Shown here: positions 32,106 to 56,776 of the stretch, one piece after another
How the letters are laid out: each line of letters begins with the position of its first letter
How positions within the stretch are numbered: position 1 is the first letter of the stretch
DNA from: an uncultured Lachnospiraceae bacterium
GTDB taxonomy: Bacteria; Bacillota; Clostridia; Lachnospirales; Lachnospiraceae
DNA: 64,000 nucleotides
Assembly: GCA_964541485.1 (NCBI GenBank)
Contig: CAZIQL010000009.1
Span: forward strand, 327 to 64,326
Direction of reading: 5' to 3'
Position numbers and translations under genes: made by a program
The notes under the pieces: generated by a model
The model's input: only the letters and a program-made list of their open reading frames with translations
What the model was told of the DNA's origin: nothing
Databases searched by the model: none

Positions 32106-32161
32106 TCAAGGAATAGAATTCTCTTAGAATATGTTATAAAGAAGTATATCAGTTTTCTAAA

Positions 32162-33322: not shown

Positions 33323-33506
33323 ACATTATCCGTTCCATCCGGAGCACCTCCGAATTCACCGGGAGCTCGTATATCGCTTTTACGGCTTCCTTTCCGTAAT
33401 CTTCCACAATATCGTAAAGGAATAACGTAACCAGAACCATAGCACAAACAATAAGACACAAAAAAGGGCAAAGAAGTGCCGCTTCTACCGTAATACTCCC
33501 TCTCAT
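33303..33506 (-). CDS. Small TadE-like (pseudopilin-like) protein.
   Basis: The ATG at 33506 is preceded by AAAGGAGGATGAA. The product starts MRGSITVEAALLCPFLCLIVCAMVLV, which matches the TadE N-terminal pattern (basic residues, then (S/T)xxVEAAL, then a hydrophobic helix). Confidence 0.55.
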   Translation of the reverse strand: MRGSITVEAALLCPFLCLIVCAMVLVTLFLYDIVEDYGKEAVKAIYELPVNSEVLRMERIMCGEGED

Positions 33507-33517
33507 TTCATCCTCCT

Positions 33518-33958: not shown

Positions 33959-34803
33959 GCAGGAAGCGTTACCTCATCTTTCTTTTTTTCCTCAAACACC
34001 CTTTTTAGGGTAGAACAATCTGCTTTTGCATGGTATTTTGTTCCTCCCAGCGATACATATACCAGCTCCGTCGCCTCATCTTTCACACAAACATCACAAG
34101 CACTGTATTTTTTCCCGTATATATTTCGTTTTTCTCCTATCCTCTCTGTCTCAACCGCCATCACTGCCACATACAGATAGCCACAGCTTTTTGACTCATG
34201 ATATACCGTCCCATATGCCGTTACATACACCACTTCATCCGACGTTTCTTCCGCTTCCAGTTTATTTTTGTCATATTCCCCGATATACGGTAAAAAACTA
34301 AAACTCTGCACTACCGGAATCCTAATCCCCGGAAGCAGTGCTGTTTCGCAAAGAAAACTATAGGCAACCTTTCCCTGCAGCTTCCCGCTTTCTGCTTTCT
34401 CAAACACTACAAACACATCTTCTGCTCTTTCCTCTTCCAGCATTACTTTCCAGACCAATGCCTCATACAACCAGGACAAATCCTCTACTTCCCCTGATGT
34501 CCTTTCCACATATCCAAGTCCTGCACTTGTCAGTGTCACTTCTGCCACTTCCTTACAGACAGAAATCTGCACCAGAAGCAGCAGAAAACACTGCCAGAAA
34601 ATATAAATAGAGAAAAAGAACATTGGAAGTGCTATCGCTGCTTCCGCAGTCAGAGATGCACTCCGGTGCCTGTTCCTGTTCTGCTTTTTTCGCTGACATA
34701 ACTTTTCGGGAGAGACGGTCCATTTATGTAAATGACCAATAGTTTTGAAATAAATAGAAATGGAAGAAGTGCTTAACTCTTTACCACTAACAAGAACAGG
34801 CAC
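33922..34803 (-). CDS. TadE-like membrane protein with a C-terminal duplicated Cys/His module.
   Basis: The GTG at 34803 is preceded by AAAGGAGGTG. The TadE-like segment is SASLTAEAAIALPMFFFSIYIF. The C-terminus carries two copies of VYV(T/S)xxGTxYHxxxxC, each followed by a CxxC (VVYVTAYGTVYHESKSCGYL...CDVC; LVYVSLGGTKYHAKADCSTL...CSRC). Confidence 0.55.
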   Translation of the reverse strand: MPVLVSGKELSTSSISIYFKTIGHLHKWTVSPEKLCQRKKQNRNRHRSASLTAEAAIALPMFFFSIYIFWQCFLLLLVQISVCKEVAEVTLTSAGLGYVERTSGEVEDLSWLYEALVWKVMLEEERAEDVFVVFEKAESGKLQGKVAYSFLCETALLPGIRIPVVQSFSFLPYIGEYDKNKLEAEETSDEVVYVTAYGTVYHESKSCGYLYVAVMAVETERIGEKRNIYGKKYSACDVCVKDEATELVYVSLGGTKYHAKADCSTLKRVFEEKKKDEVTLPACSRCAEGGNGT

Positions 34804-34823
34804 CGGAACACACCTCCTTTCTG

Positions 34824-37166: not shown

Positions 37167-37176
37167 CTTTTCTTCC

Positions 37177-37335
37177 TCATTTCATAATCTTGTTTACATC
37201 CCCCGACAATTCGGAAAACGCACTGTTTACCAAACCGGTAATCTGCTCCTTAAATATCAGTACAAGGCCAATCAGTATGACCAGAATCAACACGATTTCA
37301 ATCACTCCGACCGCTTTTGCTTCCCACTTTCTCAT
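37177..37335 (-). CDS. flp: Flp-type type IVc pilin precursor, 52 aa. It is not present in the supplied ORF track.
   Basis: Hand translation gives MRKWEAKAVGVIEIVLILVILIGLVLIFKEQITGLVNSAFSELSGDVNKIMK*. GGAAGGAGGAAAAAC lies directly upstream of the ATG. The G|VIEIVLIL motif fits the Flp processing site (G followed by xxE and a hydrophobic helix). The gene sits between tadC and the large Tad protein with 14-nt and 10-nt gaps. Confidence 0.7.
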   Translation of the reverse strand: MRKWEAKAVGVIEIVLILVILIGLVLIFKEQITGLVNSAFSELSGDVNKIMK

Positions 37336-37349
37336 GTTTTTCCTCCTTC

Positions 37350-38636
37350 CTAAAACATCCCAAATGCCGGCATGAGCAGTACGGCAAAGATCAATACAAG
37401 AAACCCCATCATCGGCAACAGAAGCTTTGTTCCTGTCTGTTCCCCACGGATTTTTATCTTTGTCCGTTCCTCCGCCATAACTTCTTTTGCTTCCTGCAGC
37501 AAAAGCTCCCGGATGTTCTGTACGCCTTTTGTGGCATTCTGGGATAACAAAGATGCCATTCTCTGATATGCCACCTGCCCAAACCGGTCTCCAAACGCCT
37601 CATACGCTACGGCCTCCGGACATCCGTTTTCCAGCTCTCTGCAGGTTACCTGCAATTCCTCTGTCAGCACAAACCGGTTCCCATATGTCTTTGCATACTC
37701 CTTTGCCAGCCGGCCAAACGCCTCTCTGACCGAAACTCCGGCCACAAGCATCAGGGAAAGCTTTGTGACAAACTCCGTATACCCGTTTCTCGCCTGATCC
37801 GCCCGGTCCTTTTTCTTTTTTTCTATTTCACTGAAATAATTCTGGTATACAAACACCGGCAAAAGCACCGCCAGAATTCCAAGAAAACCAACAGAAGATA
37901 ACCCTTTGTTCTCTAAAAGCTGTATTTTTCTCCCGTTAATCATTTCCGGAAGAGCTACCTCTTTTTGAGTTCTGGATGTTTCCTCAAGCTTTATCAGCTC
38001 CTCTTCTATTCCAAGCAGCAGTTTTTCTTCCTGCGTATACTCCTTAGGACACACCACAACCCGTCTTTCATACACGCGAAATTCCGTTCCGTACTCTATC
38101 TTTGCCGTTATAGTAACCACTTTTTCCTCGGTCAGTCCGTCGTTGTGCACTTCCCCTTTTACATCCAGCAGCCAAAGAGCGTCCGTACTCCAGCTGACTT
38201 CAAAGGAATCCAATACCTCGTCCGGAAAATACAGATTGCATTCTACTCTTTGCAGGTTCTCATTCTCCCCCGCCACCACCGTATCCAGATACGCCTCTGT
38301 TTCCTGATGGAGCTTGTCGATCTGCTCCTCTTCCAGCTCCACTGCCGAAACCGAAACCTCTGTCTTGCGCCATCCGTCTGCTGTTTCTATCTGCACGGTC
38401 TGTACGGTCTCTTCCATTCCCATCTCAGGACGCACCAGGGCCTGTATCCTGCCTTCTTTTCGTTCTTTATAAAGGAGTATCAGCGACATAGCCAAAAGAA
38501 GCCCTGTTACCATCAATGTTTTTTGCAGTCTTTTTTTGATGTCTTCCCTGAGCTTGCTTTCTACTTCTTTTTTTGTCTTTCCCGGATACAGCACCATTGC
38601 CGAACGGATTTTTTCTTCGGACACCAGTCCCCGCAT
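37350..38636 (-). CDS. tadC: TadC-like (GspF/T2SS-F family) pilus platform protein with an extended N-terminal extracytoplasmic domain.
   Basis: 428 aa. The C-terminal ~170 aa (LSLMLVAGVSVREAFGRLAKEY...LLLPMMGFLVLIFAVLLMPA) look like a T2SS-F domain. Its position after tadB and cpaF fits. Confidence 0.7.
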   Translation of the reverse strand: MRGLVSEEKIRSAMVLYPGKTKKEVESKLREDIKKRLQKTLMVTGLLLAMSLILLYKERKEGRIQALVRPEMGMEETVQTVQIETADGWRKTEVSVSAVELEEEQIDKLHQETEAYLDTVVAGENENLQRVECNLYFPDEVLDSFEVSWSTDALWLLDVKGEVHNDGLTEEKVVTITAKIEYGTEFRVYERRVVVCPKEYTQEEKLLLGIEEELIKLEETSRTQKEVALPEMINGRKIQLLENKGLSSVGFLGILAVLLPVFVYQNYFSEIEKKKKDRADQARNGYTEFVTKLSLMLVAGVSVREAFGRLAKEYAKTYGNRFVLTEELQVTCRELENGCPEAVAYEAFGDRFGQVAYQRMASLLSQNATKGVQNIRELLLQEAKEVMAEERTKIKIRGEQTGTKLLLPMMGFLVLIFAVLLMPAFGMF

Positions 38637-38656
38637 TTATTTTCACTCCTTTTATC

Positions 38657-39391
38657 CTATCCCAGCATCTCCCTTTGAATGATTTTCTCACCCAGGTACC
38701 GGAATCCCTGATAACACAAAAACACTCCCCACATGAAAACAATCCCAAATGTGTTATGATACAGCAGTTCGCTCATAGATGGCGCAAACAGCTTAAGATA
38801 AAAAAGTATGGCGTACGGAAGCACACACATAATCCGGAACTCACTTTCCTTTGCAGCAACCGCCGCCCGAAGCTCCCGTTTTAACTCAATTTTATCCTGA
38901 AGGATATCCCCTGACTGCCGAAGTATCAGGCTAAGATCTCCCCCTGTCCGCTTTACAACAGAAAGAATTTCTGCAAATTGCCGGATATCCTCGGATGCAC
39001 TCCTCTCTCCGAAAGCCAGCCACACCTTTTCCATACTGCTTCCAAGCTCCATCCCGGTTATCATTCTCCGGTACTCCTTACAAATGTCATGTCCCCGGTG
39101 GTACATCTGCTCCAGCCCCTTTAAGGTTTCCCTCATTCCGTTTTCCGGCGAATACCCTGCCGTCAATGCATTACGAAAATAAAGAAGTGAGTCCTTAAAT
39201 GCCAGTGTAAGGTTCCACCTGCTTTCTTTTTCTAACCGCTTTCTCTCCCGCAGGATATCCAGCGGCGCCGCCAACAGCACCCCCAAAGAAACCACAGAAA
39301 AATCAAAAAAAGCCCACATGGTCAGAATAGAAATTCCAAAAGTTTTCAGTACGATTCCTGCCAGTTTTGCAGCCTCATTTTTCTTCTTCAA
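38657..39391 (-). CDS. tadB: TadB-like (GspF/T2SS-F family) pilus platform protein.
   Basis: 244 aa. It has an N-terminal TM pair, a cytoplasmic helical domain and a C-terminal TM pair. It overlaps the cpaF stop by 17 nt. Confidence 0.7.
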   Translation of the reverse strand: MKKKNEAAKLAGIVLKTFGISILTMWAFFDFSVVSLGVLLAAPLDILRERKRLEKESRWNLTLAFKDSLLYFRNALTAGYSPENGMRETLKGLEQMYHRGHDICKEYRRMITGMELGSSMEKVWLAFGERSASEDIRQFAEILSVVKRTGGDLSLILRQSGDILQDKIELKRELRAAVAAKESEFRIMCVLPYAILFYLKLFAPSMSELLYHNTFGIVFMWGVFLCYQGFRYLGEKIIQREMLG

Positions 39392-40616
39392 CCGTTTCCC
39401 TTCCTTTCCCTCCTGCGCGCAAAAGCTTTCTTTGCTGCACGAAGGCGCTGCCGGTCCGCTTCAGTGACCCTGTCACACTGTCCGAAGCCTCCCCCTGCCC
39501 CTCTGTAAATACAAACAACGGGTTAATCTCTATTTCTCCGTCTCTGCAGCCAAGTACTTCTGCAATCTCCAGCACACAGCGTCTGCCGTCCCTGAGTCGT
39601 CCGAGATGCACAATAACATCAATCGCAGAAGCAATTTGCTTTCGCACCGCCATCAGCGGTATATCTGCCCCCAGCAACACCATTGTCTCCAGACGATCGA
39701 GCATATCTGCCGTAGAATTTCCGTGTCCGGTCGACAAAGAACCATCATGCCCGGTATTCATTGCCTGTAGCATATCAATGGTTTCTGCCCCCCGCACTTC
39801 TCCTACAATAATCCTGTCCGGACGGGCCCGAAGCGCTGCCCGGATCAAATCCCTGATGGAAATTTCCCGACAGCCCTCGTCCGTCCTGTTTCTGACTTCT
39901 AAACGAACCAGGTTCTCAATTCCTGTTATTTTTAATTCCGCCGCATCCTCAATGGTAACCAAGCGCTCCTCCGGAGAGATAAATCCTGCCAGCGCATTTA
40001 AAAACGTTGTCTTGCCCGAACCGGTCCCTCCGCTGATAAACAGATTATATTTTGCTTTTACAAGACTCCCAAGAAATGCCGCTGCCTCTTCTGTCAACGC
40101 TCCTGCCTCCACAAGACGTTCCATGGTAAAGGGCTCTTTTGCAAACTTCCGGATGGTAACCACCGGACCGTTTAACGCAACCGGCGATAAAATCACATTG
40201 ACACGTGAGCCTTCTTTTAACCTGGCATCCAGAATCGGATTGGCCTCATTCACCACACGGTTTGCTCCTGCTGCAATCTGCTGAATAATGTCCTCCAGTT
40301 TTTCCTTTGATTCAAACGTCTTTTCCGACCGCTGCAGCCTCCCCCCGGTTTCTACAAAAACCGCATCCGGACCATTAATCATAACTTCTGTAATGTCCTC
40401 CTGCTCCAGCAGTTCTTCCAGAATGTCTAATCCTCGTATGGACGCATAAAGCTCCTTCCGAAGCTTTTCCTTTTTTTCCAGTGTCAGAAAATTAGTCCTT
40501 GCCTCCTTTAAAACAGCACTGTCAATTTTCTCAAACAATTCTGCCTCTGTAATTTCTCCGGAGTAATCAAATGCTTCCACAATCTCCTTGCGGAGCTTTT
40601 TCTTCAGCTCATTCAT
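39375..40616 (-). CDS. cpaF: CpaF/TadA family pilus assembly ATPase.
   Basis: 413 aa. It has the Walker A motif SGGTGSGKTTFLNAL, Asp box and Walker B (IIVGEVRG), and a His box (TGHDGSLSTGH). Confidence 0.92.
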   Translation of the reverse strand: MNELKKKLRKEIVEAFDYSGEITEAELFEKIDSAVLKEARTNFLTLEKKEKLRKELYASIRGLDILEELLEQEDITEVMINGPDAVFVETGGRLQRSEKTFESKEKLEDIIQQIAAGANRVVNEANPILDARLKEGSRVNVILSPVALNGPVVTIRKFAKEPFTMERLVEAGALTEEAAAFLGSLVKAKYNLFISGGTGSGKTTFLNALAGFISPEERLVTIEDAAELKITGIENLVRLEVRNRTDEGCREISIRDLIRAALRARPDRIIVGEVRGAETIDMLQAMNTGHDGSLSTGHGNSTADMLDRLETMVLLGADIPLMAVRKQIASAIDVIVHLGRLRDGRRCVLEIAEVLGCRDGEIEINPLFVFTEGQGEASDSVTGSLKRTGSAFVQQRKLLRAGGKGRETVEEEK

Positions 40617-41503
40617 TCAACCGCCTCCGTTTCCTGCAGCTTTGACAGAACCTCCTGCTCTCCTGCATATTTCATTTGGCGCAAAAACTCTCTTTTTCTG
40701 GATTCACCTTCTTCTGACTTTGAACAGACCAAATAGACCCGACTACTCTGATGCATGACAGAAAGAATCCCATCATGAAACATTCCGGAAAGAAATACGA
40801 TATGGTCATATCCTCCGTATTCCTTGCAACACACTAAAAGCTTCTGCATTTCTTCCGGGGAATACTGCCACAGATCCGAACAGTAATCCGGACCGCAAAA
40901 ATACTCCATTCCTTTTTTCTTCCGGATTCCTGCAAACAATTTTTTTGCCTGCCGGATGTCCTTCCGCAAAAAATACAGTAATTCGCTGACGGACGGATTT
41001 TCTGTTTCCTCGGTTTCTGCTCTTTTGTATCCCAAAAAAGCATCCCACGGCAAAAATAATGTCCTGCCTCTCTCCGCCAGTTCCTTTGCAAAAGAAAGCG
41101 CATACTTTTCTGCCATCCGGTTGCTTTCCGGAGAAAAAACCACAAACAGTCCGCATAACTGCATCGCTGTTTCTCTTTGCGCTTCTGCCATCACCGTGCG
41201 AATCAGATTCCCAACCTTTTGATAACGGAACAGACAGCTCTCCTCTAAGTCACCCAACTCATCCGAAAGCTCCCATACCTTTATCCCGGCCGGCAGTTTG
41301 TCCTTTAACGATGCGATTTCTTCTTTCGTCTTTCCACCCAAAAGTAACGAAACAAGTTTTTTCCGTTCACAAAAGGACAAAAGCTCTTCTTCCTTGCGAA
41401 AGTTAACCGCAAAGCAGCCAATGTCTTTTCTTTCATTAATGTAGTGAATCAGTTGTCCTGCATACTCAGCCTGTCCATCGAAAACTCCGATGACCTGCTC
41501 CAA
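40613..41503 (-). CDS. First gene of the Tad operon, a possible TadZ/CpaE-like organiser that lacks a P-loop.
   Basis: 296 aa with a TTG start preceded by GAGAGGTGAG. The N-terminal ~110 aa look receiver-like. The region LFVVFSPESNRMAEKYALSFAKELAERGRTLFL occupies the place of the ParA/MinD Walker A, but no GKGGxGKT is present. The assignment rests on position and is weak. Confidence 0.45.
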   Translation of the reverse strand: MEQVIGVFDGQAEYAGQLIHYINERKDIGCFAVNFRKEEELLSFCERKKLVSLLLGGKTKEEIASLKDKLPAGIKVWELSDELGDLEESCLFRYQKVGNLIRTVMAEAQRETAMQLCGLFVVFSPESNRMAEKYALSFAKELAERGRTLFLPWDAFLGYKRAETEETENPSVSELLYFLRKDIRQAKKLFAGIRKKKGMEYFCGPDYCSDLWQYSPEEMQKLLVCCKEYGGYDHIVFLSGMFHDGILSVMHQSSRVYLVCSKSEEGESRKREFLRQMKYAGEQEVLSKLQETEAVE

Positions 41504-46736: not shown

Positions 46737-49721
46737 TTATCCTCTCTTTTTCTTTACTGCAAAACCGATACCTACTCCGCCGCCAATGACTGCCACTGCT
46801 GCCACTGCCGCAATAACGACCATCATGTTATTGCCGCTGCTTCCGGTGTTATCTCCTGTCACTACTTCCGAATCGGTTGGCGCAACCGTAGGTGTCTCCG
46901 TCGGCTCCGGATTCGCTGCTGTCGGAATAGGCGTTTGGGTTACTGCAGGTTTCGTTGTAGGCATAACCGTAGGTGTCGGAGTTGCAGGAATCACTTCAGA
47001 TTTTATTATCCTACACACACTACATGTATACTCTATGTTGTTTCCCTTCTGTATTCCGCCGTCCCACTGATGTGTCTCTATAGAATCCTTTTCTCCGCAA
47101 GCACACTCATTCCAATGATTGATTTCGTCAAATTTCTGCAGGTTATAAAAATGAACTCCTTTCGCCACTTTGCAATAATCACAGATATTGCAAGACATAT
47201 CCGCTTCAGAGTCAAACACATGGTCTTCTCTATCAAGCTTTTCATTACAGACGCCACATGGCTTCCAATGTCCAAATTCATCTGCATACCATACATTTTG
47301 CTTTGTATGTGCTTCCCCCTCAGCATGCATTACAATCCACGTCACATTTTCGCCAGATACCAGATTGCTCTTATCTGTTCCTGTCCATGCACCATTTTCC
47401 CGATAGTAAGCCTCTCCCTTAAAAGTGAATGGAGCCCCTCCGTCTACCTTTGGCGGGTTTCCCTCAAAAATTACCTTTTTTAACGCCTCGCACTCTCCAA
47501 AAGCCCAGTCGCCTAATACCTCTACACCTGCCGGAATTGTAAGTTCTTTCAGAGAGTTACAGCATAGGAAGGCCGCCCTTTCTATTTCTTTCAGACTTGT
47601 CGGCAAAACAATTGTCTCCAAACTAATACAATAAGCAAATGCTCGAAACTCTATTTTTGTTATAGAATCGCCCAGCACCAATCGCTCCATGTATCGACAT
47701 TGAGCAAACATTTCTTCCGTAATAGTCTCTATTGGCGCAAGCCAGATAAGTTCTGCTATATTACACTTCTCAAAGCACATGTCTCCAATTTCTGTTATAC
47801 CTTTCGACACAGTCAGCGATACCTTTTTCTTGTAGGTAAACGCATGTTGAAAAACACTCTGTCCTAATTTTTTCAGCGTATCCGGCAGAACAATCTCCTC
47901 TAAACCGGTACATTCCAGAAATGCTCTATCTCCAATTTCCTCAATTCCTTCCGGTATAATTACTGTCAGAAGATTTTCACTTCTCCAGAAAGTTTCCCTC
48001 GCAATCTTCTTCATTTTTGGGGAAAGGACTACCTTTTCCAGTCCATAACACATGCGGAATGCACCTTCTCCCAAATATTCCACACTGTCAGGTAAAATAA
48101 CCTCTTCCAAGGAACCGCACCCTTCAAAAGCAGAGTTTCCGATATAGGTTAGACCTTCCGGTAAAGAAACTTTTTGTAAACTATCACAATAAGTAAATGC
48201 CTTATCTGCAATAACCGTCACAGACTCCGGAATAAGCACTTCCTCCAGTCCGGGACAATACGCAAATGCCTCCATACTAATTTCTGTAATCCCCTCTTCT
48301 ATTACTATTTTTTTTACAAATCCCTTCCATTCCTTCCATGAAGGATTGCCGATCTTGCCGCTTCCACTGATTGTCAGTATGCCATCGCTTGTCAAGGACC
48401 AGTTTGTGCCTTCGTTATTCACCCCGGAAGCGGCCACATCTCCGCTCTTCGGAAGTACCTTTCCGTATGACGTAAAAGACACCGGATATTCTGCAAAAAA
48501 CTCTTTGGTATGATACTCCGGGTCCTCCCAGTGTATGGCCCCTAATTCCCTGAACTCCGCTAATCCACATAGAAAATACGGATAATCCGTCGTCGTGGCA
48601 TCATTCGTTGCATCAACGCAATAATATACTCCGTCCACTTCTACAATATTCCACGCATGATATCCCACCGTACCGGATACTATCCGCGCATTAACTCCTG
48701 CCTGAAGCATCATCCGATAAACCAAATCTGCATAACCGTCACATATAGCGTATCCTGTTTTTAAAGCCCAATATGCATTTGCAACTTCCTGCGTATGGGA
48801 ATCATTCCATGCAGGATCACTAATCTCATGCGCATAAGATACATTATCACAAATATATTTGTAAATAGCACAGACCTTCTCATACTCTGTCATAGTTTCA
48901 ATCTGTAATTCTTCAAAAATCCGGTCAATTTCTTCCGTTAGCCATCGCTCTTGCTCTGCTGTAGAAGCATAATCCGGAAACCAGCCAGTTAAAGCAATAT
49001 AATGTATTTTATCGTCATAGATATCATCATAGTAATATTTTCCTTCCCAGTTATCCCACAAGATATCACCTTCTGTTGCTCTTCCGGTATATTTACATAT
49101 TTCCTCAAAAAGCGCTGTTTGCTCCTCTCCTATGAGCAACTCTATCTCCTTCTCAAAATAGTAGCAGACTTCCATGCCAATATTTCTCTGTACAAGATGG
49201 TCTTTTAAATACGCTGCTGCTTCCTCGATGGACAGATACACTTTTCCATCTTTTGTCAAATGTGCACTTTCATTATACCAAGTTGGCTTTTTATGTCCAC
49301 ATCTCTCACAATCGTCTCCGGAATACACATGTAATTCTTTTTCCGTCTCTTCCCCGCAATCACACTGTTCCCAATGATATAATTCGTCACTCATCTGCGT
49401 TTCAAATTTATGCTTTAATTCTCTTTTGTATCCGCACCAATAACATATGGTGTCATTTGCATTCGTATAATAATGTTTCTGGTAATCCCATGTCTTTCCA
49501 CACTCACATACCTTCCACGAATACTTCGCATCGGTACAAACCGTGTCAAAGGAATGCTCTACCGCCCGATACTCACCACAAACATTACATTTATGGTCAC
49601 AATCATAATCATACACATGCTCTGTACATTCTTCTGCCAGCACCTGCTTTGCTTCTCCCGACAACACAAACGCCAGTACAAGAGAGAACACACACAGCCA
49701 AACCCCTTTACATCTGTTCAT
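46737..49721 (-). CDS. Large TM-anchored surface protein. In order it has a signal peptide, Cys/His repeat modules, a transglutaminase-like cysteine protease core, BspA-type leucine-rich repeats, more Cys/His modules, a PT linker and a C-terminal TM.
   Basis: The likely start is the ATG at 49721 (MNRCKGVWLCVFSLVLAFVLSG) after GGAGGGAAAG. The TGase-like core is CDGYADLVYRMMLQAGVNARIVSG..GYHAWNIVEVDGVYYCVDAT. About 10 LRRs have the form EEVxxPxSVxxIGxxAFxxC. The C-terminus is PATPTPTVMPTT...VVIAAVAAVAVIGGGVGIGFAVKKKRG. Confidence 0.8.
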   Translation of the reverse strand: MNRCKGVWLCVFSLVLAFVLSGEAKQVLAEECTEHVYDYDCDHKCNVCGEYRAVEHSFDTVCTDAKYSWKVCECGKTWDYQKHYYTNANDTICYWCGYKRELKHKFETQMSDELYHWEQCDCGEETEKELHVYSGDDCERCGHKKPTWYNESAHLTKDGKVYLSIEEAAAYLKDHLVQRNIGMEVCYYFEKEIELLIGEEQTALFEEICKYTGRATEGDILWDNWEGKYYYDDIYDDKIHYIALTGWFPDYASTAEQERWLTEEIDRIFEELQIETMTEYEKVCAIYKYICDNVSYAHEISDPAWNDSHTQEVANAYWALKTGYAICDGYADLVYRMMLQAGVNARIVSGTVGYHAWNIVEVDGVYYCVDATNDATTTDYPYFLCGLAEFRELGAIHWEDPEYHTKEFFAEYPVSFTSYGKVLPKSGDVAASGVNNEGTNWSLTSDGILTISGSGKIGNPSWKEWKGFVKKIVIEEGITEISMEAFAYCPGLEEVLIPESVTVIADKAFTYCDSLQKVSLPEGLTYIGNSAFEGCGSLEEVILPDSVEYLGEGAFRMCYGLEKVVLSPKMKKIARETFWRSENLLTVIIPEGIEEIGDRAFLECTGLEEIVLPDTLKKLGQSVFQHAFTYKKKVSLTVSKGITEIGDMCFEKCNIAELIWLAPIETITEEMFAQCRYMERLVLGDSITKIEFRAFAYCISLETIVLPTSLKEIERAAFLCCNSLKELTIPAGVEVLGDWAFGECEALKKVIFEGNPPKVDGGAPFTFKGEAYYRENGAWTGTDKSNLVSGENVTWIVMHAEGEAHTKQNVWYADEFGHWKPCGVCNEKLDREDHVFDSEADMSCNICDYCKVAKGVHFYNLQKFDEINHWNECACGEKDSIETHQWDGGIQKGNNIEYTCSVCRIIKSEVIPATPTPTVMPTTKPAVTQTPIPTAANPEPTETPTVAPTDSEVVTGDNTGSSGNNMMVVIAAVAAVAVIGGGVGIGFAVKKKRG

Positions 49722-49831
49722 TTTTCTTTCCCTCCATCTACTTTTTCTCTTCCCCACAAGGAATTTAATTTCATTATAATCAAATACACATGCCTCCGCA
49801 ATAAACCATTTGCCTTATATATACCTCTATG

Positions 49832-49880: not shown

Positions 49881-50885
49881 TTATACGCTTTCTTTACTTT
49901 CCTTTACAGAATTATCTGCACCCTTTTTCTTCTGATAAATCAGGTAACCGGCAATAGCGCCGCCCCACAGCACTACTACACCGCCAATGATACCAAAAAG
50001 CCACTTACCGAAGTTACCGCCCTTTGTGTCCTTGGAGTCGTCTCCGTTGCTATCGTCACCGGAGCTGTTATCATCGCCGGTGTTATCACCGGAAGTATTT
50101 CCGGAGCCTTCACCGTTGCCGTTGTTGTCTCCGCTTCCGTCTTCACCGGTATTTCCACCCGGAGTATTACCTGTTCCTTCACCATTTCCGATACCATCAC
50201 CTGTGCCTGTTCCGTCTCCAGTATTATCACCGGAAGTTCCTCCCTGGCCACCTTCACCTGTGTTATCGCCCTGGTTTTCGCCGGTTCCATCTCCAGTGTT
50301 ATCACCGGAAGAACCGCCCTGAGCATCTACCGTTCTCTGATTGCCACAGATAGTACAGGTATACGTTGTCACGTCACCTTCTGTCACACCCGCACCCCAT
50401 ACATGCGCGCCGATGTTTACCTTTGTGCTACACTCCGTACATTCATCCCAATGCCAGGTGCCGTCCGTTCTCTTCACCAGCAGATGTTCTTCTTTGTTCT
50501 TTTTTTCTCCGCAGGAGCACTCATCCCAATGATAGGTACTGTCCGCTCCCGGAGTATCATACTTATGTTCCAGATGACGCTCATAACCACACTCCGAACA
50601 GGTCAAATCCGAATCACTGTCAAAGTCATGTGCAATAATATCTAACTTCGCGCCACACTCACACTTCAACCAATGGTAATAATAATTCTGTCCGTACAGA
50701 TTATACGTATGGCTCGCACTTCTTTCATAGCCACAAATATTACAGGTCGTATCGCAATCATAACTATACGTATGTACGTCGCACGGCTCTGCCACATCTG
50801 CATGTGCCGGTATTCTGGAAACACTGCCAAAAAGCAACGCCGCTCCAAATGCCGCCGCCAGTATCCTTCTCAAATTCTTCTTCAT
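49881..50885 (-). CDS. TM-anchored surface protein: a signal peptide, six Cys/His repeat modules, a G/D/N/T/S-rich low-complexity stalk and a C-terminal TM.
   Basis: 334 aa. GGAGGT precedes the ATG. It has alternating modules such as DCDTTCNICGYER and YHWLKCECG. The stalk is DNTGDGTGENQGDNTGEGGQGGTSGDNTGDGTG.... The C-terminal TM is WLFGIIGGVVVLWGGAIAGYLIY. Confidence 0.75.
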   Translation of the reverse strand: MKKNLRRILAAAFGAALLFGSVSRIPAHADVAEPCDVHTYSYDCDTTCNICGYERSASHTYNLYGQNYYYHWLKCECGAKLDIIAHDFDSDSDLTCSECGYERHLEHKYDTPGADSTYHWDECSCGEKKNKEEHLLVKRTDGTWHWDECTECSTKVNIGAHVWGAGVTEGDVTTYTCTICGNQRTVDAQGGSSGDNTGDGTGENQGDNTGEGGQGGTSGDNTGDGTGTGDGIGNGEGTGNTPGGNTGEDGSGDNNGNGEGSGNTSGDNTGDDNSSGDDSNGDDSKDTKGGNFGKWLFGIIGGVVVLWGGAIAGYLIYQKKKGADNSVKESKESV

Positions 50886-50969: not shown

Positions 50970-50998
50970 ATTTTACCACATTCTCCTTTTTTCGACAA
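50970..50998 (-). promoter_or_regulatory. SigA-type promoter candidate for the 334-aa surface protein gene.
   Basis: The minus strand reads TTGTCG-N17-TAAAAT (-35 at 50993-50998, -10 at 50970-50975), about 85 nt upstream of the start codon. Confidence 0.4.
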
Positions 50999-51010
50999 TG
51001 TATATTTTTC

Positions 51011-51122
51011 AAAACATTCAGCGTAGTTCCATCGGCATATCGCTTCGCGACATGCCGCTTTCAACAACTCCTCAAAAAACATGCAGCGTAGTTCCATCGG
51101 CATATCGCTTCGCGACATGCCG
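51011..51122. repeat. Two direct copies, period 65 bp, of a hairpin-containing element.
   Basis: Positions 51019-51057 and 51084-51122 are identical over 39 nt (CAGCGTAGTTCCATCGGCATATCGCTTCGCGACATGCCG). Each copy contains the imperfect hairpin CGGCATATCGC-TTC-GCGACATGCCG. Both are preceded by AAAACAT(T/G)CAGC, a module that recurs at 51184-51198. Confidence 0.8.
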
Positions 51123-51134
51123 ATGTGGGGCGGC

Positions 51135-51597
51135 GGGGCGTCGTTTCTTCGGACATTACTAAGATTGCCGCTGCAGCCATCTTAAAAAAACATGCAGCAC
51201 CCTACCACAAACTCCGAACTGCAAGGCGACAGGAATAGGTGGGAATAAGGAGACGGAAGCCGAATTGTCTGAGGCGGGAAGGGGAAAGGATGTCTGCAAA
51301 AGGGATGTTACGGAAAGCGTCCGTAGGACGCGATTTTAGAAAAGGCGGTAGAGGCCTCTGGAAAACACGTTTTCCAAGAGCCTCCATCGCCTTTTCATAA
51401 AAGCGCTTCGCACTTTTCCGTAACATCCTCTTATTCAAATGTTTCATCTCCCCGACCGCCGAGTTTTCGGTTCCGTCTCTTTGTTCATGACCACCGGCTG
51501 TCGCCTTGCAGGAGATAAGTTTTTGAGTAGGGTGGCTGCGTTTTTTAAGACAGCTGCAGAGGCAGGAAAGAAGTAAGGTCCGAGGAAACGACGCCCC
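51135..51597. repeat. A 463-bp near-full-length imperfect palindrome with arms of about 230 nt, centred near 51367.
   Basis: Collinear perfectly complementary blocks are 51135-51147 with 51585-51597 (13 bp), 51219-51232 with 51498-51511 (14 bp) and 51303-51316 with 51415-51428 (14 bp). The centre is GGAAAAC-AC-GTTTTCC (51360-51375). The sequence between these blocks is also largely complementary, with mismatches and small indels. Confidence 0.85.
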
Positions 51598-51603
51598 TTG
51601 GTG

Positions 51604-51638
51604 AAACACAAAAGTGAGAGCAGTCCATCACTGCTCCC
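51604..51638 (-). terminator. Rho-independent terminator of the flagellin-fliS operon.
   Basis: On the minus strand GGGAGCAG-loop-CUGCUCUC (one G-U pair) is followed by ACUUUUGUGUUU. It begins 30 nt after the fliS stop. Confidence 0.55.
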
Positions 51639-51667
51639 ACCTTTGCATTAGGATTGTACTTATTATG

Positions 51668-52147
51668 TTAGGCATTAAATCCACGGTTGTAATCCTGTGG
51701 ATTCAAAAAGGCTTCATTAAGCTGACCCTTCCCATAGGTCAGACCTGCATAGACCTGCTGCACATTCTGCATCACAGGTCCGGTCGTATCCTGATTCTTA
51801 ATCCCGTCGAATCCGGCACGCAATTTTTCTATAATCATTTCGACATCTGCAAGCGTTTCTGCGTTTCCGCTCACCCTTGCCTTTGTCAGCATCTTGTTTG
51901 CATAAATATATAAGCTCATCAGATGATAGGAAAGCGGAACAGAAAAGTCCAGTACTCCCATCAGTTCGTTTAAAAACTTTCCGGCATGCGTCAATTCCTT
52001 CTGATATGCCAGGCGGTTCTCTCCCTCTAAAGCCGCCTTTGCCGCCGCGATATCATCTAAAATGATGTCGTACATGATAACAACCAACTCACACGGCGAT
52101 GCCTGGGAAACCCGCAAAGTATAATCTTTGATTCTGTCCTTGGTCAT
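51668..52147 (-). CDS. fliS: Flagellar export chaperone FliS.
   Basis: 159 aa. It has the four-helix FliS pattern (ASPCELVVIMYDIILDDIAAAK...HLMSLYIYANKMLTKA) and lies immediately downstream of flagellin. Confidence 0.8.
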   Translation of the reverse strand: MTKDRIKDYTLRVSQASPCELVVIMYDIILDDIAAAKAALEGENRLAYQKELTHAGKFLNELMGVLDFSVPLSYHLMSLYIYANKMLTKARVSGNAETLADVEMIIEKLRAGFDGIKNQDTTGPVMQNVQQVYAGLTYGKGQLNEAFLNPQDYNRGFNA

Positions 52148-52169: not shown

Positions 52170-53630
52170 TCAGCTCTGTAATAAATTAAGGATGTTTTGC
52201 GGTCTTTCATTTGCCTGTGCAAGCATCGAAGTTGCTGCCTGTGTCAGCACCTGAAGCTGTGTATAGGTTGCCATTTCCTCTGCCATGTCAGTATCCTCAA
52301 TACGGGACAATGCTTCCGTTAAGTTTTCTGCGGAAACGTCCAGACTGTTAATCGCATGCTCCAAACGGTTCTGATATGCACCAAGCTTTGCACGTACGGT
52401 GGAAACCTCATTTACGGCCGAGTTAAACAGTGTAATTGCAGCTTCTGCACCTGCCTGTGTACCGATATTGGCATCTTCTATATTTAAAGTTACGGTATCT
52501 ACTCTAGGAATACGGACTTCCATTGTCTGGCCTTCATTTGCGCCAATCTGCAAGGTCATCGGACCCGCATCCAAAACAGTTACCGTTACATCCTTTGCTG
52601 CACCGTCCTTCACCTGGAATACCATTTCAAAATCATCACGGTCTCTGACTGTGACATAATCTCCGTCCACACTGACCGTTGCCGTGTGGGAAAATCCGCC
52701 TTCTTCTGTCATATCAAGAGACACTGTGCCATCCTTACCCAAAGCCAGCTCACCGGACTTGGAAATGCCGAGCATATCTGCGAGCACTTCGTCACAGTGG
52801 ATTTCCAGCTTTGCATCCGTTCCATAATCATCCGTTAAGAAAATCAGGGAATATTCGCTCGGATTTGCTGCTGCCACATCCGCACTTACGGTATCGTAGC
52901 CGCCCACACCGTTTTCATCCTCTGTACCACTGGTAAATCCGACATAAATGCCCATGTTGTCACAGGTGGTTGTCAGCTTATCCAATACATCTGTCAGGGA
53001 ATCCCCTGCGTCAATCGTAATGTCCTGATTGTTGATGGTCATTGTATAGCTTGTCTTATCCGCCGGCACGGTTGCCTGTGTCATCTTATCCGTAATCACG
53101 CGTGCCTGGTCTGCATAATCGCCCACAACCAGCTTATAGCTTCTTACATCCACAGAATCCGATAAGGAAATCAGCTCCACATTGTTGTCACTGGAATAAG
53201 AACGGCGGTCTACCGTACCATCGAGGAGCTTCTTTGTATTAAATTCGGTCGTTTCGGAAATTCGGTTGATTTCGTCCTTTAACTGATCTACCTCCGCCTG
53301 AAGCTGCAGACGGTCTTCATCTGTGGAAGTTCCGTTGGCTGCCTGTACAGATAATTCACGCATTCTCTGTAACATTTCTTCCACTTCTACGAGGGCACCC
53401 TCTGCCGTCTGGATTACAGAAATACCGTCAGACGCATTTCTGGACGCCTGATTTAAGCCTGCAATCTGTGTTTTCATCTTCTGGGAAATAGCAAGACCTG
53501 CAGCATCATCCGCTGCACGATTGATGCGGTAACCGGAAGAGAGTCTTTCCAGACTCTTTTCCAGCGCGCTGTTGTTTTTACCAAGAATATTATTTGTTTT
53601 TAAAGCAGAAATGTTATGGTTAATTCTCAT
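52170..53630 (-). CDS. fliC: Flagellin.
   Basis: 486 aa. It has the conserved N-terminal D0/D1 ([14 protein letters not shown]...[23 protein letters not shown]) and C-terminal D1/D0 ([14 protein letters not shown]...[15 protein letters not shown]) around a variable central domain. Confidence 0.95.
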
Positions 53631-53647: not shown

Positions 53648-56600
53648 CTACGCAACATCCGCATCTGCATTTCTTACATGCACTACCAGGGATTTTGCGA
53701 TACGATATAACCTGCTGCTGTCTGTTTCCTGTGTCTCTTCACGTCCCTGTGCATCCTTGTAAATGCCTTCTGTCTGGTAAGAATAAGTGTCCACGCTTAC
53801 TTCTTCCGTTCCGTAATAGATGGAACCTATCTGAATCTGATTCTGGGCAAGAATGCCGAGCAGATTCAGCTGACGGTCTTTCAACGCCTGTGTACCTTCC
53901 CTGGTATCACTGGTGATGAAACATTTTAACTTATTATCCTGAATGGTCGCTTCGCAGGAAATCCTGCCAAGATTCCATGTCGGAATCTCTGCCAGTACCT
54001 TTGCCTTTTCCTCGCCCTTTTCCAGGATGGTCACATTCATGTTTACAATATCATTTCCGGTATCGACCGGTATCTGATAAAATTCTCTCTTACTTAACCG
54101 GTTCATAAAACGGATTCCGATATCCATTTTCTTAATCGACTTTACATCCGGTTTTGTCATAATGGAATCATGCTGCATCCGCGCCTTTAGTTCCTTCGAG
54201 TCATTCGCAAATGCCTGATATGCCTTCTGCATCGTCTCCTTGTCTTCCATTGCCGCAACAAAATCCGGAAGCTCTGCTTCTTCTCCGGTCTCCATATAGT
54301 GGAACCGTTTCCACTCCTTAAAGACAGTCATATCGTTTGCCAAAAGATTTTTTGCCGCTTCGATATTTTCCATGGTAGTCAAAATACTGTAATCTTCAAG
54401 GAAACGGGTCGCATTCACTCCGTCTGCTGCCAGGGTCCGTACTCTGCCGATTTCCTCTGCGGCGCTTTCCTGCCTGTCCGTAGCAAACTCTCTGATAGTA
54501 TTATCGACCGTTTCGGCTAAATTGTTTAGTGCTTCTGCATCTTTTCCCTTCACATTTGCAAGACCTGCCGCAATCTGATCCTCCATCCGGGATTTATCGC
54601 TGGCAAACGGCACCGCCGCCTTAAATGCGTCATTAATTAACGTATTCATGCCCTGCGCCTTTCCGCTTCTGGCTGCGGTAAGTAAGTTCTGCAAGGTCAG
54701 CTCCTGACCGTTCCTAAACACTCCGCCGATGGCCTCTTCCTCAGAACCTCCCACCTGATGGAGCGCACGGTACACACCGATATAAGCCTGCCGTTCCTCC
54801 GGTGTGATTTCCTTGTGCTTTTCCAAATTAATTAAGAAAATACTGTAATTATCGTCTGTTGTAATGCCTTCCTGCTCCTTAATCTCTGCAATCTTTGCAG
54901 AAAGATTCTCAATCGACTCCTCCAGAGGATTAATGCCGTCACGGATCATGCGTACAGTTACTGCCGGATGCAGCTCTTTTAAAACATTCTGCAGCTGTTC
55001 ATCATATGCACGAACCTTTTCCACATTTTCTGCCGTTACTTCCACGGAATTGTAGCCCAGCATTCTTACCGCACGACGGTTTTCCATCGTCGTCTGAAGT
55101 CCGATCTCATGAAGCAGCGTGTCCGCATTGCCGAATGCCTTATGAATATTATCCCCCAACGTCTTGTTTGGTGAAGTCATCACCGTCTCATAGGTCTGGC
55201 TGAACTTGCGGAATGCCGCATCCATTGCTCCCGCCTGATGCAGCTCATTTAATGTAATCCGGCTGCCTGTATCCACCGTATCCACAATCAGGGTTGCCGG
55301 CATGTTTTTAATTTCTTCTAACTTCATGGTAGTGTCGCGCAGCATCGCCATACCTTCCTTGCTCTCTGCCACACCCGCCTGGGTAAAGAAACTGGAGAAG
55401 AAACGGTTTTCAAGCGCACGCAAATTATCAATCAGCTTGCTCATGCTGACTGTATCAATGCGGATACCTTCCTTTGCAAGGCGGTAACCCGCTTCGTATG
55501 TCATCTTCGCTCGGATTTCCTCTAACTGACGACGCGCCCGGATGGATGCCGCCTGGGCAGCTCCCGAGTTTGCAAAATCCTGCAGATAGCTTTCCATGTC
55601 TGCGTTCTTGCTGTCAATGAGTTCCTGTGCCTCATTTAAATCGTTTAAAGAAAGCTCTAATTTATCTCCGGAAACACCCGGCTGTTCGCCGGCTTTTTTG
55701 GTTGCCGCATAATTTACCGCATCCTGTGTTACCGCTCCGGTCTTTTTAATAATCTGGCGGACTTCCTTTGCCGTATTGGAAAGAAGATTCGTGTTCTTCG
55801 GATCCTGCCCTACAGAGAGCGCATCTACCGTCTTCTGAAGCACGTCTTCTTCGGAAAGATTAATCTTTGCAAGCAAGCTGTAGGAACGCAGATTATCTAC
55901 TGTGAGCGGAATATCCTTCTTTACAAAGGTCTGAGCCGCCTCAATCATCTGGTTATTTGCACGCAGCCCCGCCTGGAACAAAAGATGGGTTACCTTTGGC
56001 TCTAGCTGCGCCCATGCTTCTGCTGTCAGGGCATGCTCTTTTCTCTGATAACTCTGTGCCGCCGAACGCGCCGCTGCCACGTTCTCAAGCGTCGGTGCCA
56101 GCTTGTTTCGCACCATGTATTCGCATTCGGTTGGTGTCAGCTTCACACCACCCGCTGCCTTCTCTAACGCCACCGCTACCTTCTCTAAATTAGCCTGTGT
56201 CACAGGAAGATTTGCCTTTAATAATTTTTCTGCAATCAGCTCTGCCTTCGGATTGCCCGCCAGCTGCTTAATCGCCTGTTCAATAACCGCCGCTCGCTGT
56301 GCCTCAATCTGCTCTACCTGACCCTCTATCGCGCCCTGTGCCAGTTCCTGCTGCAGCTTAATACGTTCCATTGCAGCCTCTAACTGCTCTGCTGTCATCT
56401 CATCCACCGGAAATCCCTCGCTCTGAAGCTTTGCCATATCAGACTCCGTCATTCTTCCGGAAACATTATTTAAGCGCTCCTGATTCTTTTCCGCTTCTGT
56501 TCCCTCTTCCTTTGCCTCTTTTGCATTCTCCGCCGGATCCATTCCGTTCTTGGAATAAATATCGGAGGTCTGCTGCTGCTTTAAATCAACCTCTTCCGTA

Positions 56601-56728
56601 TATAAAATAGCCTCTGCAACAGAAGAGGTCTGCTGTGCTCCCATGGTCTTTTCTGTCTGCGTTACAACACCTTTATTCTGTTCATTCTGCTTTACGCCGT
56701 AAGCTGCGAAAACATCTGCTATATTCAT
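53648..56728 (-). CDS. Large alpha-helical, acidic protein with a FliK-like (Flg_hook-like) C-terminal region. It is a possible hook-length-control or flagellar accessory protein.
   Basis: The likely start is the ATG at 56728 (MNIADVFAAYG). It is about 1026 aa. The C-terminal AKVLAEIPTWNLGRISCEATIQDNKLKCFITSDTREGTQALKDRQLNLLGILAQNQIQIGSIYY follows the FliK C-terminal pattern (LxPxxLGxvxvxlxxxxgxlxvxfxa....L......L...L...G). A sigma-28-like promoter lies upstream and flagellin starts 17 nt downstream. Confidence 0.5.
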   Translation of the reverse strand: MNIADVFAAYGVKQNEQNKGVVTQTEKTMGAQQTSSVAEAILYTEEVDLKQQQTSDIYSKNGMDPAENAKEAKEEGTEAEKNQERLNNVSGRMTESDMAKLQSEGFPVDEMTAEQLEAAMERIKLQQELAQGAIEGQVEQIEAQRAAVIEQAIKQLAGNPKAELIAEKLLKANLPVTQANLEKVAVALEKAAGGVKLTPTECEYMVRNKLAPTLENVAAARSAAQSYQRKEHALTAEAWAQLEPKVTHLLFQAGLRANNQMIEAAQTFVKKDIPLTVDNLRSYSLLAKINLSEEDVLQKTVDALSVGQDPKNTNLLSNTAKEVRQIIKKTGAVTQDAVNYAATKKAGEQPGVSGDKLELSLNDLNEAQELIDSKNADMESYLQDFANSGAAQAASIRARRQLEEIRAKMTYEAGYRLAKEGIRIDTVSMSKLIDNLRALENRFFSSFFTQAGVAESKEGMAMLRDTTMKLEEIKNMPATLIVDTVDTGSRITLNELHQAGAMDAAFRKFSQTYETVMTSPNKTLGDNIHKAFGNADTLLHEIGLQTTMENRRAVRMLGYNSVEVTAENVEKVRAYDEQLQNVLKELHPAVTVRMIRDGINPLEESIENLSAKIAEIKEQEGITTDDNYSIFLINLEKHKEITPEERQAYIGVYRALHQVGGSEEEAIGGVFRNGQELTLQNLLTAARSGKAQGMNTLINDAFKAAVPFASDKSRMEDQIAAGLANVKGKDAEALNNLAETVDNTIREFATDRQESAAEEIGRVRTLAADGVNATRFLEDYSILTTMENIEAAKNLLANDMTVFKEWKRFHYMETGEEAELPDFVAAMEDKETMQKAYQAFANDSKELKARMQHDSIMTKPDVKSIKKMDIGIRFMNRLSKREFYQIPVDTGNDIVNMNVTILEKGEEKAKVLAEIPTWNLGRISCEATIQDNKLKCFITSDTREGTQALKDRQLNLLGILAQNQIQIGSIYYGTEEVSVDTYSYQTEGIYKDAQGREETQETDSSRLYRIAKSLVVHVRNADADVA

Positions 56729-56776
56729 TCTAATTCCCCGTTTCTGCGGACACCCCGCCAAATACTGTTATCATCT

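Follow-up and report, generated by a model that had tools for sequence, protein, structure and literature searches.

Correia elements (CREE) of Neisseria, ERIC/IRU elements of enterobacteria and REP sequences are imperfect intergenic palindromes that fold into hairpins and, as set out in the account of PMC2649163, co-transcribed palindromic repeats can be bound or cut by RNase III, which alters the expression of their neighbours. Here we describe a likewise imperfect, intergenic palindrome of 463 bp, located at positions 51135-51597 of a 64,000-nt stretch of DNA from an uncultured Lachnospiraceae bacterium (assembly GCA_964541485.1, contig CAZIQL010000009.1, positions 327 to 64,326; the whole stretch is hereafter called the window), where it separates the terminator of a flagellin–fliS operon from the promoter of a gene for a Cys-rich surface-anchored protein. 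The described families measure about 35-155 bp, are present in tens to hundreds of copies, are or once were mobile and have defined termini and target duplications, whereas the palindrome reported here is single-copy, occupies one site, shows no target-site duplication and has arms that co-evolve.

Other points of reference are retroregulatory hairpins and large structured RNAs. The lambda sib element and the 'positive retroregulator' of Bacillus thuringiensis cry are 3' hairpins that lie past the normal stop or terminator and alter the stability of the upstream message in extended transcripts only; they are tens of nucleotides long, and the palindrome, known here from sequence alone, is likened to them by its position. 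ROOL, GOLLD, OLE and raiA RNAs, found in Firmicutes and in rumen and gut metagenomes, are hundreds of nucleotides long and backed by covariation, with functions that are unknown or only recently glimpsed. These large RNAs are ornate and multi-domain, with highly conserved unpaired nucleotides and a clear strand specificity, whereas the palindrome, although in a similar size class, is a simple rod bearing two small side branches, gives no strand signal and matches no Rfam family.

Two further bodies of work concern palindromes as DNA. According to the accounts in PMC8604942 and PMC8794818, template switching between non-identical inverted repeats homogenises their arms, inverts the spacer and makes multi-nucleotide 'compensatory' changes in one step. 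The block-wise mirrored changes, the one-arm intermediate and the variant centre reported below match that behaviour, but the described cases are short repeats and small hairpins, while here the arms are 230 nt long and their asymmetries have been kept over a long divergence. Palindromes engineered into the Escherichia coli chromosome (246 bp interrupted, 460 bp perfect) are described as forming replication hairpins and leading to SbcCD cleavage, recombination and rearrangement (PMC4245961, PMC3315005); they are of similar size but artificial, perfect or nearly so, and deleterious, whereas the present one is natural, matched at about 79% and retained.

By analogy, the palindrome would work most like the co-transcribed repeats (Correia, ERIC) or the retroregulatory 3' hairpins, and yet it stands outside all of these families, since it differs from them in copy number, target duplication, size and mobility. 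All together, our data indicate that its structure and conservation are real and undescribed, that the clade bearing it is narrow and the element dispensable, and that it is an undescribed structural element, probably a functional one. As an explanation we tentatively propose, with a probability of roughly 0.35, that the palindrome forms a cis-acting hairpin in transcripts extending beyond the fliS terminator, by the mechanism described above for co-transcribed Correia, ERIC and REP repeats.

A single large quasi-palindrome that folds along its entire length

An inverted-repeat search returned a collinear nest of pairs centred at 51367/51368, which divides the element into a left arm of 233 nt (51135-51367) and a right arm of 230 nt (51368-51597). 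The apex reads GGAAAAC-AC-GTTTTCC (51360-51375), and perfectly complementary blocks pair 51135-51147 with 51585-51597, 51219-51232 with 51498-51511, and 51303-51316 with 51415-51428. The last of these pairs, here called the inner repeats, consists of a perfect 14-bp inverted repeat (GGATGTTACGGAAA on the left, TTTCCGTAACATCC on the right) that brackets the central 98 bp (51317-51414). When the arms were aligned globally, one of them as its reverse complement, there were 183 matches, 31 mismatches and 35 gap positions, corresponding to about 79% matching and about 180 pairs, with no perfect block longer than 14 nt.

The folds add two branches to the main stem. Specifically, a side hairpin GCGTCC-GTA-GGACGC (51317-51331) branches off in one arm only, and the consensus fold places a second one, GTGC-GAA-GCGC on the minus strand, in the opposite arm (51403-51413). 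Folded as RNA, the plus strand reaches -267.9 kcal/mol (z -18.4) and the minus strand -257.9 kcal/mol (z -19.8), in both cases with no shuffled sequence as good; as DNA, the palindrome folds at -143.8 kcal/mol (z -16.6). When the whole window was compared with its own reverse complement by BLAST, the palindrome scored 176 bits and the runner-up, which is of terminator size, 48 bits. The palindrome is therefore the sole large one in the 64 kb.

The repeat search, the arm alignment and the folding of both strands thus bear out the proposal of an earlier note on this DNA, which had described a near-full-length imperfect palindrome at 51135-51597, had quoted the apex and the three pairs of perfect blocks at coordinates that all prove correct, and had asked for both strands to be folded.

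An assembly artefact was considered and ruled out by the imperfect match between the arms, by an independent Logan contig (L006) that spans the entire palindrome at 100% identity, and by seven further Logan contigs from separate runs, which cover the right arm at 99.4-100% identity and, in six cases, also the centre. Six Logan contigs from six runs (L001-L005, L008) all end within 51313-51322, just beyond the centre of the palindrome, at a place where no 31-mer is repeated within the window. Haplotypes that co-exist and differ in the left arm could account for this, as could coverage lost at the hairpin.

The two arms co-evolve

A FliS-based scan of species genomes led to the Lachnospiraceae metagenome-assembled genome SIG299 (L009), whose FliS is 89% identical to that of the window and which carries, at the same place, an orthologous palindrome of 462 bp (L009:5550-6011) together with two hairpin repeats. 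Further contigs were retrieved through homologues of FliS and of the product of the downstream gene. Among them, full-length copies of the L009 type are found in L031-L035 and L037, with coordinates L031:1820-2283, L034:782-1245, L035:82-544 and L037:782-1244.

The palindromes of the window and of L009 are only 72-76% identical, yet both fold end to end. To score the changes, the structure predicted from the window only (183 pairs) was mapped onto L009. In this comparison 120 pairs are unchanged. Both sides have changed in 32 pairs, 28 of which are still Watson-Crick while 4 are broken; where one side only has changed, 12 pairs are kept and 13 broken, and 6 more fall into gaps. An RNAalifold consensus of 157 pairs likewise contains 28 compensated ones. 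Sliding the register left 1-4 compensated pairs, shuffles gave 14.0 +/- 2.7, and none of 500 column shuffles reached the observed values. The compensatory changes among homologues that the earlier note had proposed to look for are thus present, above both slid and shuffled controls.

The same holds in the details of the structure. At the apex, a compensated one-base insertion on each side turns GGA-AAAC...GTTT-TCC into GGACAAAC-GT/GA-GTTTGTCC in the L009 type, and the inner repeat reads GGATATCGCGAA / TTCGCGATATCC in L009, with 4 of 12 pairs compensated. Three bulges (AT, a single C, and TCAT) are identical in the two sequence types, and both of the non-equivalent side hairpins are present in each of them. 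In the side hairpin GTGC-GAA-GCGC a U.G pair has become U-A in the L009 type, while the hairpin at 51317-51331 sits in the best-conserved block of the palindrome, where 51313-51345 shows one difference from L009 and a sliding identity of 0.93-1.00. In conclusion, it is well supported that the arms co-evolve and so keep about 180 pairs of an interrupted stem, along with its bulges and its two side hairpins.

Changes occur in blocks, as expected of template switching between the arms

The compensated pairs are clustered: 12 of the 28 fall within one hypervariable helix, formed by 51166-51189 and 51541-51564, whose sequence differs among the lineage types seen while its arms change together. Its 5' arm reads CTCTGCAGCTGTCTTAA in the window, CTCTGCAGCCGTCTTAA in L007, CGCCACAGCCGTCCCCA in L024 and L026, CCGTACGAATGCCGGAG in L009, CCGTACAGTTACCGGAG in L031 and CCGTACAGTTACCAGAG in L030. 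For the lineage of L024 and L026, we predict that the 3' arm holds a segment complementary to GCCACAGCCGTCCCCA.

Palindromes of the L009 type combine one unchanged 3' arm with either of two 5'-arm alleles. The allele of L009, L035 and L037 matches the 3' arm, while that of L030-L032 and L034 carries a block of about nine uncompensated changes and pairs poorly. L031 and L037 are nearly identical in fliS and differ in this allele; no donor for the divergent allele was found within the loci. A variant of the centre was seen in L007 (run SRR14307641), which reads from the right flank into the 14-bp inner repeat and then into the sequence that normally follows the left copy. The end of this contig lies exactly 30 nt from where the repeat starts, which is k-1 for the Logan k of 31 and indicates a branch of the de Bruijn graph. 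The centre of L007 has been either inverted or copied from the other arm, a chimeric read being an alternative source of the junction.

Clustered mirrored changes, an intermediate altered in one arm only and a variant centre are thus all found, and these are the footprints of template switching. The pattern of mirrored changes fits replication template switching between the arms, and the palindrome is a natural and clear example of such evolution in a quasi-palindrome. Blocks of change would arise in one arm and later be mirrored in the other, a sequence of events that the two alleles partly show.

The L007 junction, together with inverted repeats that flank a short segment and a contig end at a graph branch, is also what a phase-variable switch would give, in which a recombinase flips the central 98 bp between the 14-bp inner repeats. 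We consider this highly improbable. The central segment contains no promoter-like site and the window no recombinase, the inner repeats covary rather than stay conserved, and all other full-length copies, of both types, are in one orientation; moreover, the L007 junction can also derive from a template switch that copied the 5' inner arm off the 3' arm, or from a chimeric read.

A further explanation dispenses with function altogether. The palindrome could be a self-perpetuating relic of an ancestral inverted duplication, possibly of the neighbouring hairpin-repeat array, whose arms are kept alike by template switching and by recombination between lineages, and which is tolerated and in the course of being deleted. 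Compensated changes that come in blocks, the existence of a one-arm-only intermediate and recent polymorphisms within the L009 type that are mostly uncompensated are all in line with it. On the other hand, frequent copying from arm to arm should remove asymmetries, and the bulges and both side hairpins have been kept in the two types. We regard a functionless palindrome as possible, though doubtful.

The palindrome is confined to one clade, at one site, and has been lost repeatedly

In the related loci the position of the palindrome never varies: the fliS terminator precedes it, the promoter of the gene for the Cys-rich surface-anchored protein follows it, and each locus has exactly one copy. 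Besides the full-length copies, the 5' arm alone was recovered in L007, L024, L026-28 and L030. Palindrome-free loci are L013-17, L018, L019, L020, L029 and L041, and the loci of more distant genomes (L010-L012, FliS identity 72-73%) also lack it. A locus retrieved through a homologue of the downstream gene product (P0123) proved palindrome-free and did not provide a third 3' arm, and the contigs retrieved through the downstream gene end in a 47-nt direct repeat, short of the left arm.

In a neighbour-joining tree of FliS, the bearers form one clade, with L013 and L041 nested within it and L029 adjacent. In L013-17, GGGGCGTCG, which corresponds to the first 9 nt of the palindrome, is fused at a GTCG(C) microhomology to a hairpin repeat of which only the right half is left; such a scar denotes a deletion and not an unused insertion site. 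In L018, L020, L029 and L041 the entire block is missing, hairpin repeats included. Two or more losses inside the clade (L013, L041 and L029 all lack the palindrome, and L013 keeps the scar) again favour a functionless sequence.

The earlier note had allowed that the palindrome might be unique to one strain and hence a random rearrangement scar. It is neither, since related lineages carry it at this site too, with changes that are compensated. In conclusion, it is well supported that the palindrome is a single-copy, non-coding resident of one small clade of uncultured Lachnospiraceae, that both its inheritance and its exchange, the latter by homologous recombination, take place at one site, and that it has been deleted in some lineages.

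Separately, on an ENA scaffold (L024:860-1070) the 5' arm of the palindrome, up to ...CATTTGAACAAGC, is joined to unrelated AT-rich DNA with its own terminator. This joint is probably that of a chimeric scaffold; a rearrangement at the palindrome is less likely.

No gene or RNA family matches the palindrome, and a mobile element or replication origin is not supported

The only reading frame of note, of 135 aa, has no homologue among 5.8 billion proteins and splits into different frames in the orthologues, and a six-frame Pfam scan of the palindrome gave no match. Neither arm resembles the rest of the window or the palindrome-free related loci. An origin as a coding sequence or a gene fragment is therefore ruled out, by absent homologues, the empty Pfam scan, unconserved frames and the lack of similar sequence nearby. 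These results agree with the earlier view of the frame as implausible, as it is spurious, and neither arm qualifies as the duplicated fragment of a coding gene that had been raised as a way to overturn the proposal. The Rfam scan suggested at the same time, carried out with Rfam 15 on the whole window at gathering thresholds, matched no family; at E up to 10 only models of miRNA precursors appeared, far below threshold, as they do for any hairpin.

Similarity searches on DNA were equally negative. No match was found by blastn against phage and plasmid records, in JGI metagenome contigs with the best-conserved 26-mer and with a 21-mer common to six 5'-arm variants, in viral contigs with the terminal 26-mer, a conserved block and the hairpin repeat, or in 185,579 species genomes with a two-block pattern specific to the window.

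A non-autonomous mobile element (MITE or foldback) inserted after the fliS terminator is suggested by the patchy distribution, in which close relatives differ in presence, by the palindromic character of the full length and by GGGG...CCCC ends that resemble those of the Tn3 family. However, the 64-kb window and each related locus hold a single copy, whose site never varies, and the JGI and viral-contig scans, as well as the species-genome scan with its window-specific pattern, returned no remote copies. No direct repeat of 2-10 nt marks a target-site duplication (flanks ...GTGGGGCGGC / element / TTGGTGAAAC...), and the window ORFs of at least 110 aa include no recombinase, transposase, reverse transcriptase or Rep protein. 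In addition, the termini lack the conservation expected of a transposase site, and the empty site of L013 keeps its 9 nt of palindrome fused to half a hairpin repeat. The MITE-like or mosaic repeat put forward in the earlier note is thus not supported, because there is one copy per locus, at the same site and with no target-site duplication, the window encodes no transposase and the empty site is a deletion scar; we rate such an element as very unlikely.

Another candidate of that note, a structure like a single-strand origin, fared no better. Single-strand origins of the ssoA type carry the CS-6 consensus TAGCGT/A in a terminal loop, and TAGCG[TA] is found on neither strand of 51000-51660. 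An ssoA-type origin was rejected on this ground and for want of a rolling-circle replicon context, a Rep gene and any plasmid or phage match; the palindrome lies in a chromosomal-core context and shows no strand preference. An intrinsic terminator was rejected as well, as the palindrome is followed by GCCGCCCCA, with no T-run, and the real fliS terminator is a separate hairpin at 51609-51645.

Genes, hairpin repeats and transcription signals around the palindrome

The genes around the palindrome all lie on the minus strand. Upstream of it, in the direction of transcription, is a unit encoding a DUF6240 protein (53648-56761), flagellin (52170-53630) and, as the final gene, fliS (51668-52147). 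The intrinsic terminator of the flagellin–fliS operon (51599-51645, minus strand) has a stem formed by 51609-51624 and 51630-51645, followed by TTTTGTGTTT; it is kept in all relatives, whether the palindrome is present or not, and on this strand the palindrome begins about 10 nt past its T-run. A separate, normal fliS terminator (about 51604-51645) had been recognised before, and correctly so, as an inverted-repeat pair with a T-run on the minus strand. The placement between this terminator on one side and the conserved promoter of a surface-protein gene on the other also stands, but two hairpin-bearing direct repeats had been overlooked.

These 47-nt direct repeats lie on the minus strand at 51076-51122 (the copy proximal to the palindrome, with a 14-bp hairpin at 51095-51125) and at 51011-51057 (hairpin at about 51030-51060). 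They are 98% identical with a period of 65 nt, and their hairpin reads CATCGGCATGTCGC-GAA-GCGATATGCCGATG on the minus strand; Tandem Repeats Finder reported no array. Two copies are present in L009 and one in L031-L040, and between the window and L009 the hairpin shows one compensated pair, C-G to T-A. The two repeats are part of the same inserted block as the palindrome. The spacer of the repeat array (51053-51087) resembles the outer arm of the palindrome (51166-51198) with a score of 31, against a maximum of 23 over 200 shuffles, which offers a functionless palindrome a possible origin.

Past the repeats, a promoter scan placed a sigma-A-type promoter of the downstream gene at 50970-50998 (minus strand; TTGTCG, 17 nt, TAAAAT, with a TG extension), which is nearly invariant across six aligned lineages. 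The gene itself (49881-50885, minus strand) encodes a protein of 334 aa with a signal peptide, four Cys/His-rich repeats, a G/D/N/T-rich linker and a C-terminal membrane anchor. This protein belongs to no Pfam family and has only 12 homologues at E <= 1e-20, P0122-P0132 among them. It evolves much faster than its neighbours, with 63% amino-acid identity between the window and L009, where FliS, flagellin and the DUF6240 protein reach 88-94%.

Between the Cys-rich gene and the gene of a LacI-family regulator, the window holds a gene (46737-49757) for a protein of 1006 aa with a transglutaminase-like core and BspA-type leucine-rich repeats, which is not at that position in L009, L013, L018 or L031. 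The remaining content of the window consists of chromosomal core genes (dnaX-ybaB-recR, murG), sugar-utilisation genes and operons, and Tad-type pilus genes. The Tad/Flp-type cluster, at about 32100-41500 and on the same strand as nearly all genes of the window, comprises a T2SSE ATPase, two T2SSF proteins, DUF5702, a prepilin peptidase and a DUF6382-FHA protein.

With regard to transcription, the promoter scan detected no sigma-70-type site inside or beside the palindrome on either strand, no terminator was found after it, and the conserved promoter of the downstream gene lies beyond it. With no local promoter and all flanking genes co-directional, read-through of the fliS terminator on the minus strand is the only evident source of a transcript. 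The palindrome itself gives no indication of strand: consensus folds reach -211.6 kcal/mol on the minus strand and -206.6 on the plus strand, with 28 and 29 compensated pairs, and mismatches of wobble type favour the minus strand in 5 cases and the plus strand in 6 in the window, and in 9 and 11 cases in L009. G.U pairs that favour the minus strand are confined to the neighbouring hairpin repeats, where a G.T pair on the minus strand only corresponds to A.C on the plus strand, and to the side hairpin at 51403-51413, which has fewer pairs on the plus strand. That no strand is favoured is also what a functionless sequence would show.

These observations bear on a further explanation, an independent rod-like RNA gene of about 460 nt with a promoter of its own that escaped recognition, in which the hypervariable helix would be a specificity determinant. 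Many compensated pairs, conserved internal loops and side hairpins, and blocks conserved at 93-100% that adjoin a hypervariable covarying helix could all be read in this way, and as no known family matches, such an RNA would be new. We nevertheless judge it decidedly unlikely. There is no sigma-70-type promoter on either strand, with about 10 nt of upstream room on the minus strand, and neither a terminator after the palindrome nor a strand-specific wobble signal; a plain rod is unlike the known large bacterial RNAs, and sister lineages dispense with it.

Rates of change and recombination at the locus

Comparison of the window with L009 gives an identity of 0.72-0.76 for the palindrome and of 0.57-0.65 for four-fold sites in the flanking genes. 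Between L009 and L031 the corresponding values are 0.96 (447 of 464 positions) and 0.67. The change is thus slower than at four-fold sites in both comparisons, which speaks against a functionless sequence. The second contrast has to be read together with the structure of the locus. L009 and L031 share a tract of about 800 nt that is 95-100% identical and extends from fliS nt ~367 to the -10 element of the downstream promoter (L031 ~1619-2414), with sharp edges and, as exceptions, the block of the 5'-arm allele (0.88-0.90) and one indel in a hairpin repeat. L013 is a mosaic, in which flagellin is window-like (0.887), fliS nt 1-366 L009-like (0.891) and the downstream gene again window-like (0.767). 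The tract reflects either strong constraint or a recently exchanged segment; given its sharp edges, the universally conserved 3' end of fliS and the L013 mosaic, recent recombination accounts equally well for 0.96 against 0.67. Insofar as recombination can explain the near-identical tract, it is also compatible with a palindrome that has no function.

In the same region, the last 114 nt of fliS plus 28 nt from the stop codon (51643-51781, minus strand) are 90-99% identical among lineages in which fliS nt 1-366 is only 72-89% identical, and the 28-mer TAACATAATAAGTACAATCCTAATGCAA is exact in 30 of 41 loci, palindrome-free ones included. Synonymous sites are therefore conserved too at the 3' end of fliS, and this suggests an overlapping regulatory or RNA element that would be unrelated to the palindrome.

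A role at the level of DNA, which the earlier note had listed in the form of a recombination hotspot or insulator, is another candidate, with the palindrome forming a cruciform or a replication hairpin and serving as a hotspot of recombination or double-strand breaks for flagellin exchange, or as a topological buffer between tandem units. Consistent with this, both strands fold and covary equally, the L013 mosaic places recombination breakpoints on either side of the element, the L009/L031 tract is centred on it with flanks 33% diverged at four-fold sites, and the promoter scan found no transcription signals. However, recombination at flagellin loci is common without palindromes, so that the mosaic is unspecific. 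About 79% arm matching and the many bulges disfavour cruciform extrusion, positive supercoiling ahead of the flagellin-operon polymerase would presumably oppose it, and a hotspot has no obvious need for conserved bulges and side hairpins. A DNA-level element is, in our opinion, unlikely.

As to selection on the fold, stems appear more conserved than loops in the consensus structure (0.78 vs 0.53), a figure biased by the choice of structure; with the window-only structure the values are near-equal (~0.75 vs ~0.71). This near-equality counts against selection and for a functionless palindrome, and the several losses of the palindrome count against selection too. The palindrome persists, on the other hand, in at least five lineages that are about 0.4-0.6 substitutions per four-fold site apart, although long palindromes are expected to be unstable, as indicated by the work on engineered ones (PMC4245961, PMC3315005), and this retention speaks against a sequence that is merely tolerated. 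Persistence in spite of the expected instability, slower change than at four-fold sites and the kept asymmetries were therefore counted for selection, and the balance tips somewhat towards a function for the palindrome.

Discussion

The very long hairpin RNA listed in the earlier note stays a candidate, and the explanation that we put forward, a cis-acting hairpin in read-through transcripts, would operate as follows. Transcripts that extend past the fliS terminator would fold into a hairpin of about -260 kcal/mol, and the resulting long double-stranded RNA may act in cis, either as a block to exonucleases or as a target and processing site for RNase III. In this way the flagellin operon, which is heavily transcribed, would be uncoupled from the downstream gene. 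That the bulges have survived and the element has persisted would most likely be due to selection for the folded form.

Several of our own results weigh against this explanation. The palindrome has no strand preference, as would be the case for a purely DNA-level palindrome, and with an apparently efficient terminator about 10 nt upstream, most transcripts of the operon should not reach it. It is dispensable, being missing from L013-17, L029 and L041, inside or next to the clade of bearers. The compensation counts rest on one deep comparison, as there are two deeply diverged full-length types and the other copies are close to L009; besides, template switching alone can create compensated changes, so that compensation by itself is no proof of selection. 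Finally, the locus is a recombination mosaic, in which the contrast of 0.96 with 0.67 may be due to exchange and not to constraint.

A more far-reaching proposal would make the palindrome the first example of an undescribed class, a rod-like RNA or folded single-stranded DNA of about 460 nt, selected at the flagellin locus of gut Lachnospiraceae, with the hypervariable helix as a lineage-specific recognition determinant, and controlling the expression or the exchange of flagellin. Candidate partners for such a determinant are a double-strand-specific nuclease, an antisense partner, or an enzyme of recombination or repair. We hold this to be rather improbable.

Whether or not the palindrome has a function, the lineages preserve the stages of arm-to-arm copying, namely a block changed in one arm, a re-matched helix, a flipped or copied centre and a deletion scar. 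The locus is thus a natural illustration of how template switching makes 'compensatory' changes, which matters wherever covariation is taken as proof of RNA function. If the palindrome were merely a tolerated relic, it would be a caution against taking long conserved hairpins for RNA genes. If, instead, the fold is under selection, the palindrome would be a very long one that a bacterium keeps and does not purge, which is rare in nature, and it lies next to genes that encode a major surface antigen, flagellin. The locus would then offer a tractable system for studying how long hairpins are tolerated and whether they serve as a barrier or processing site in RNA, buffer topology or act as a hotspot of recombination.

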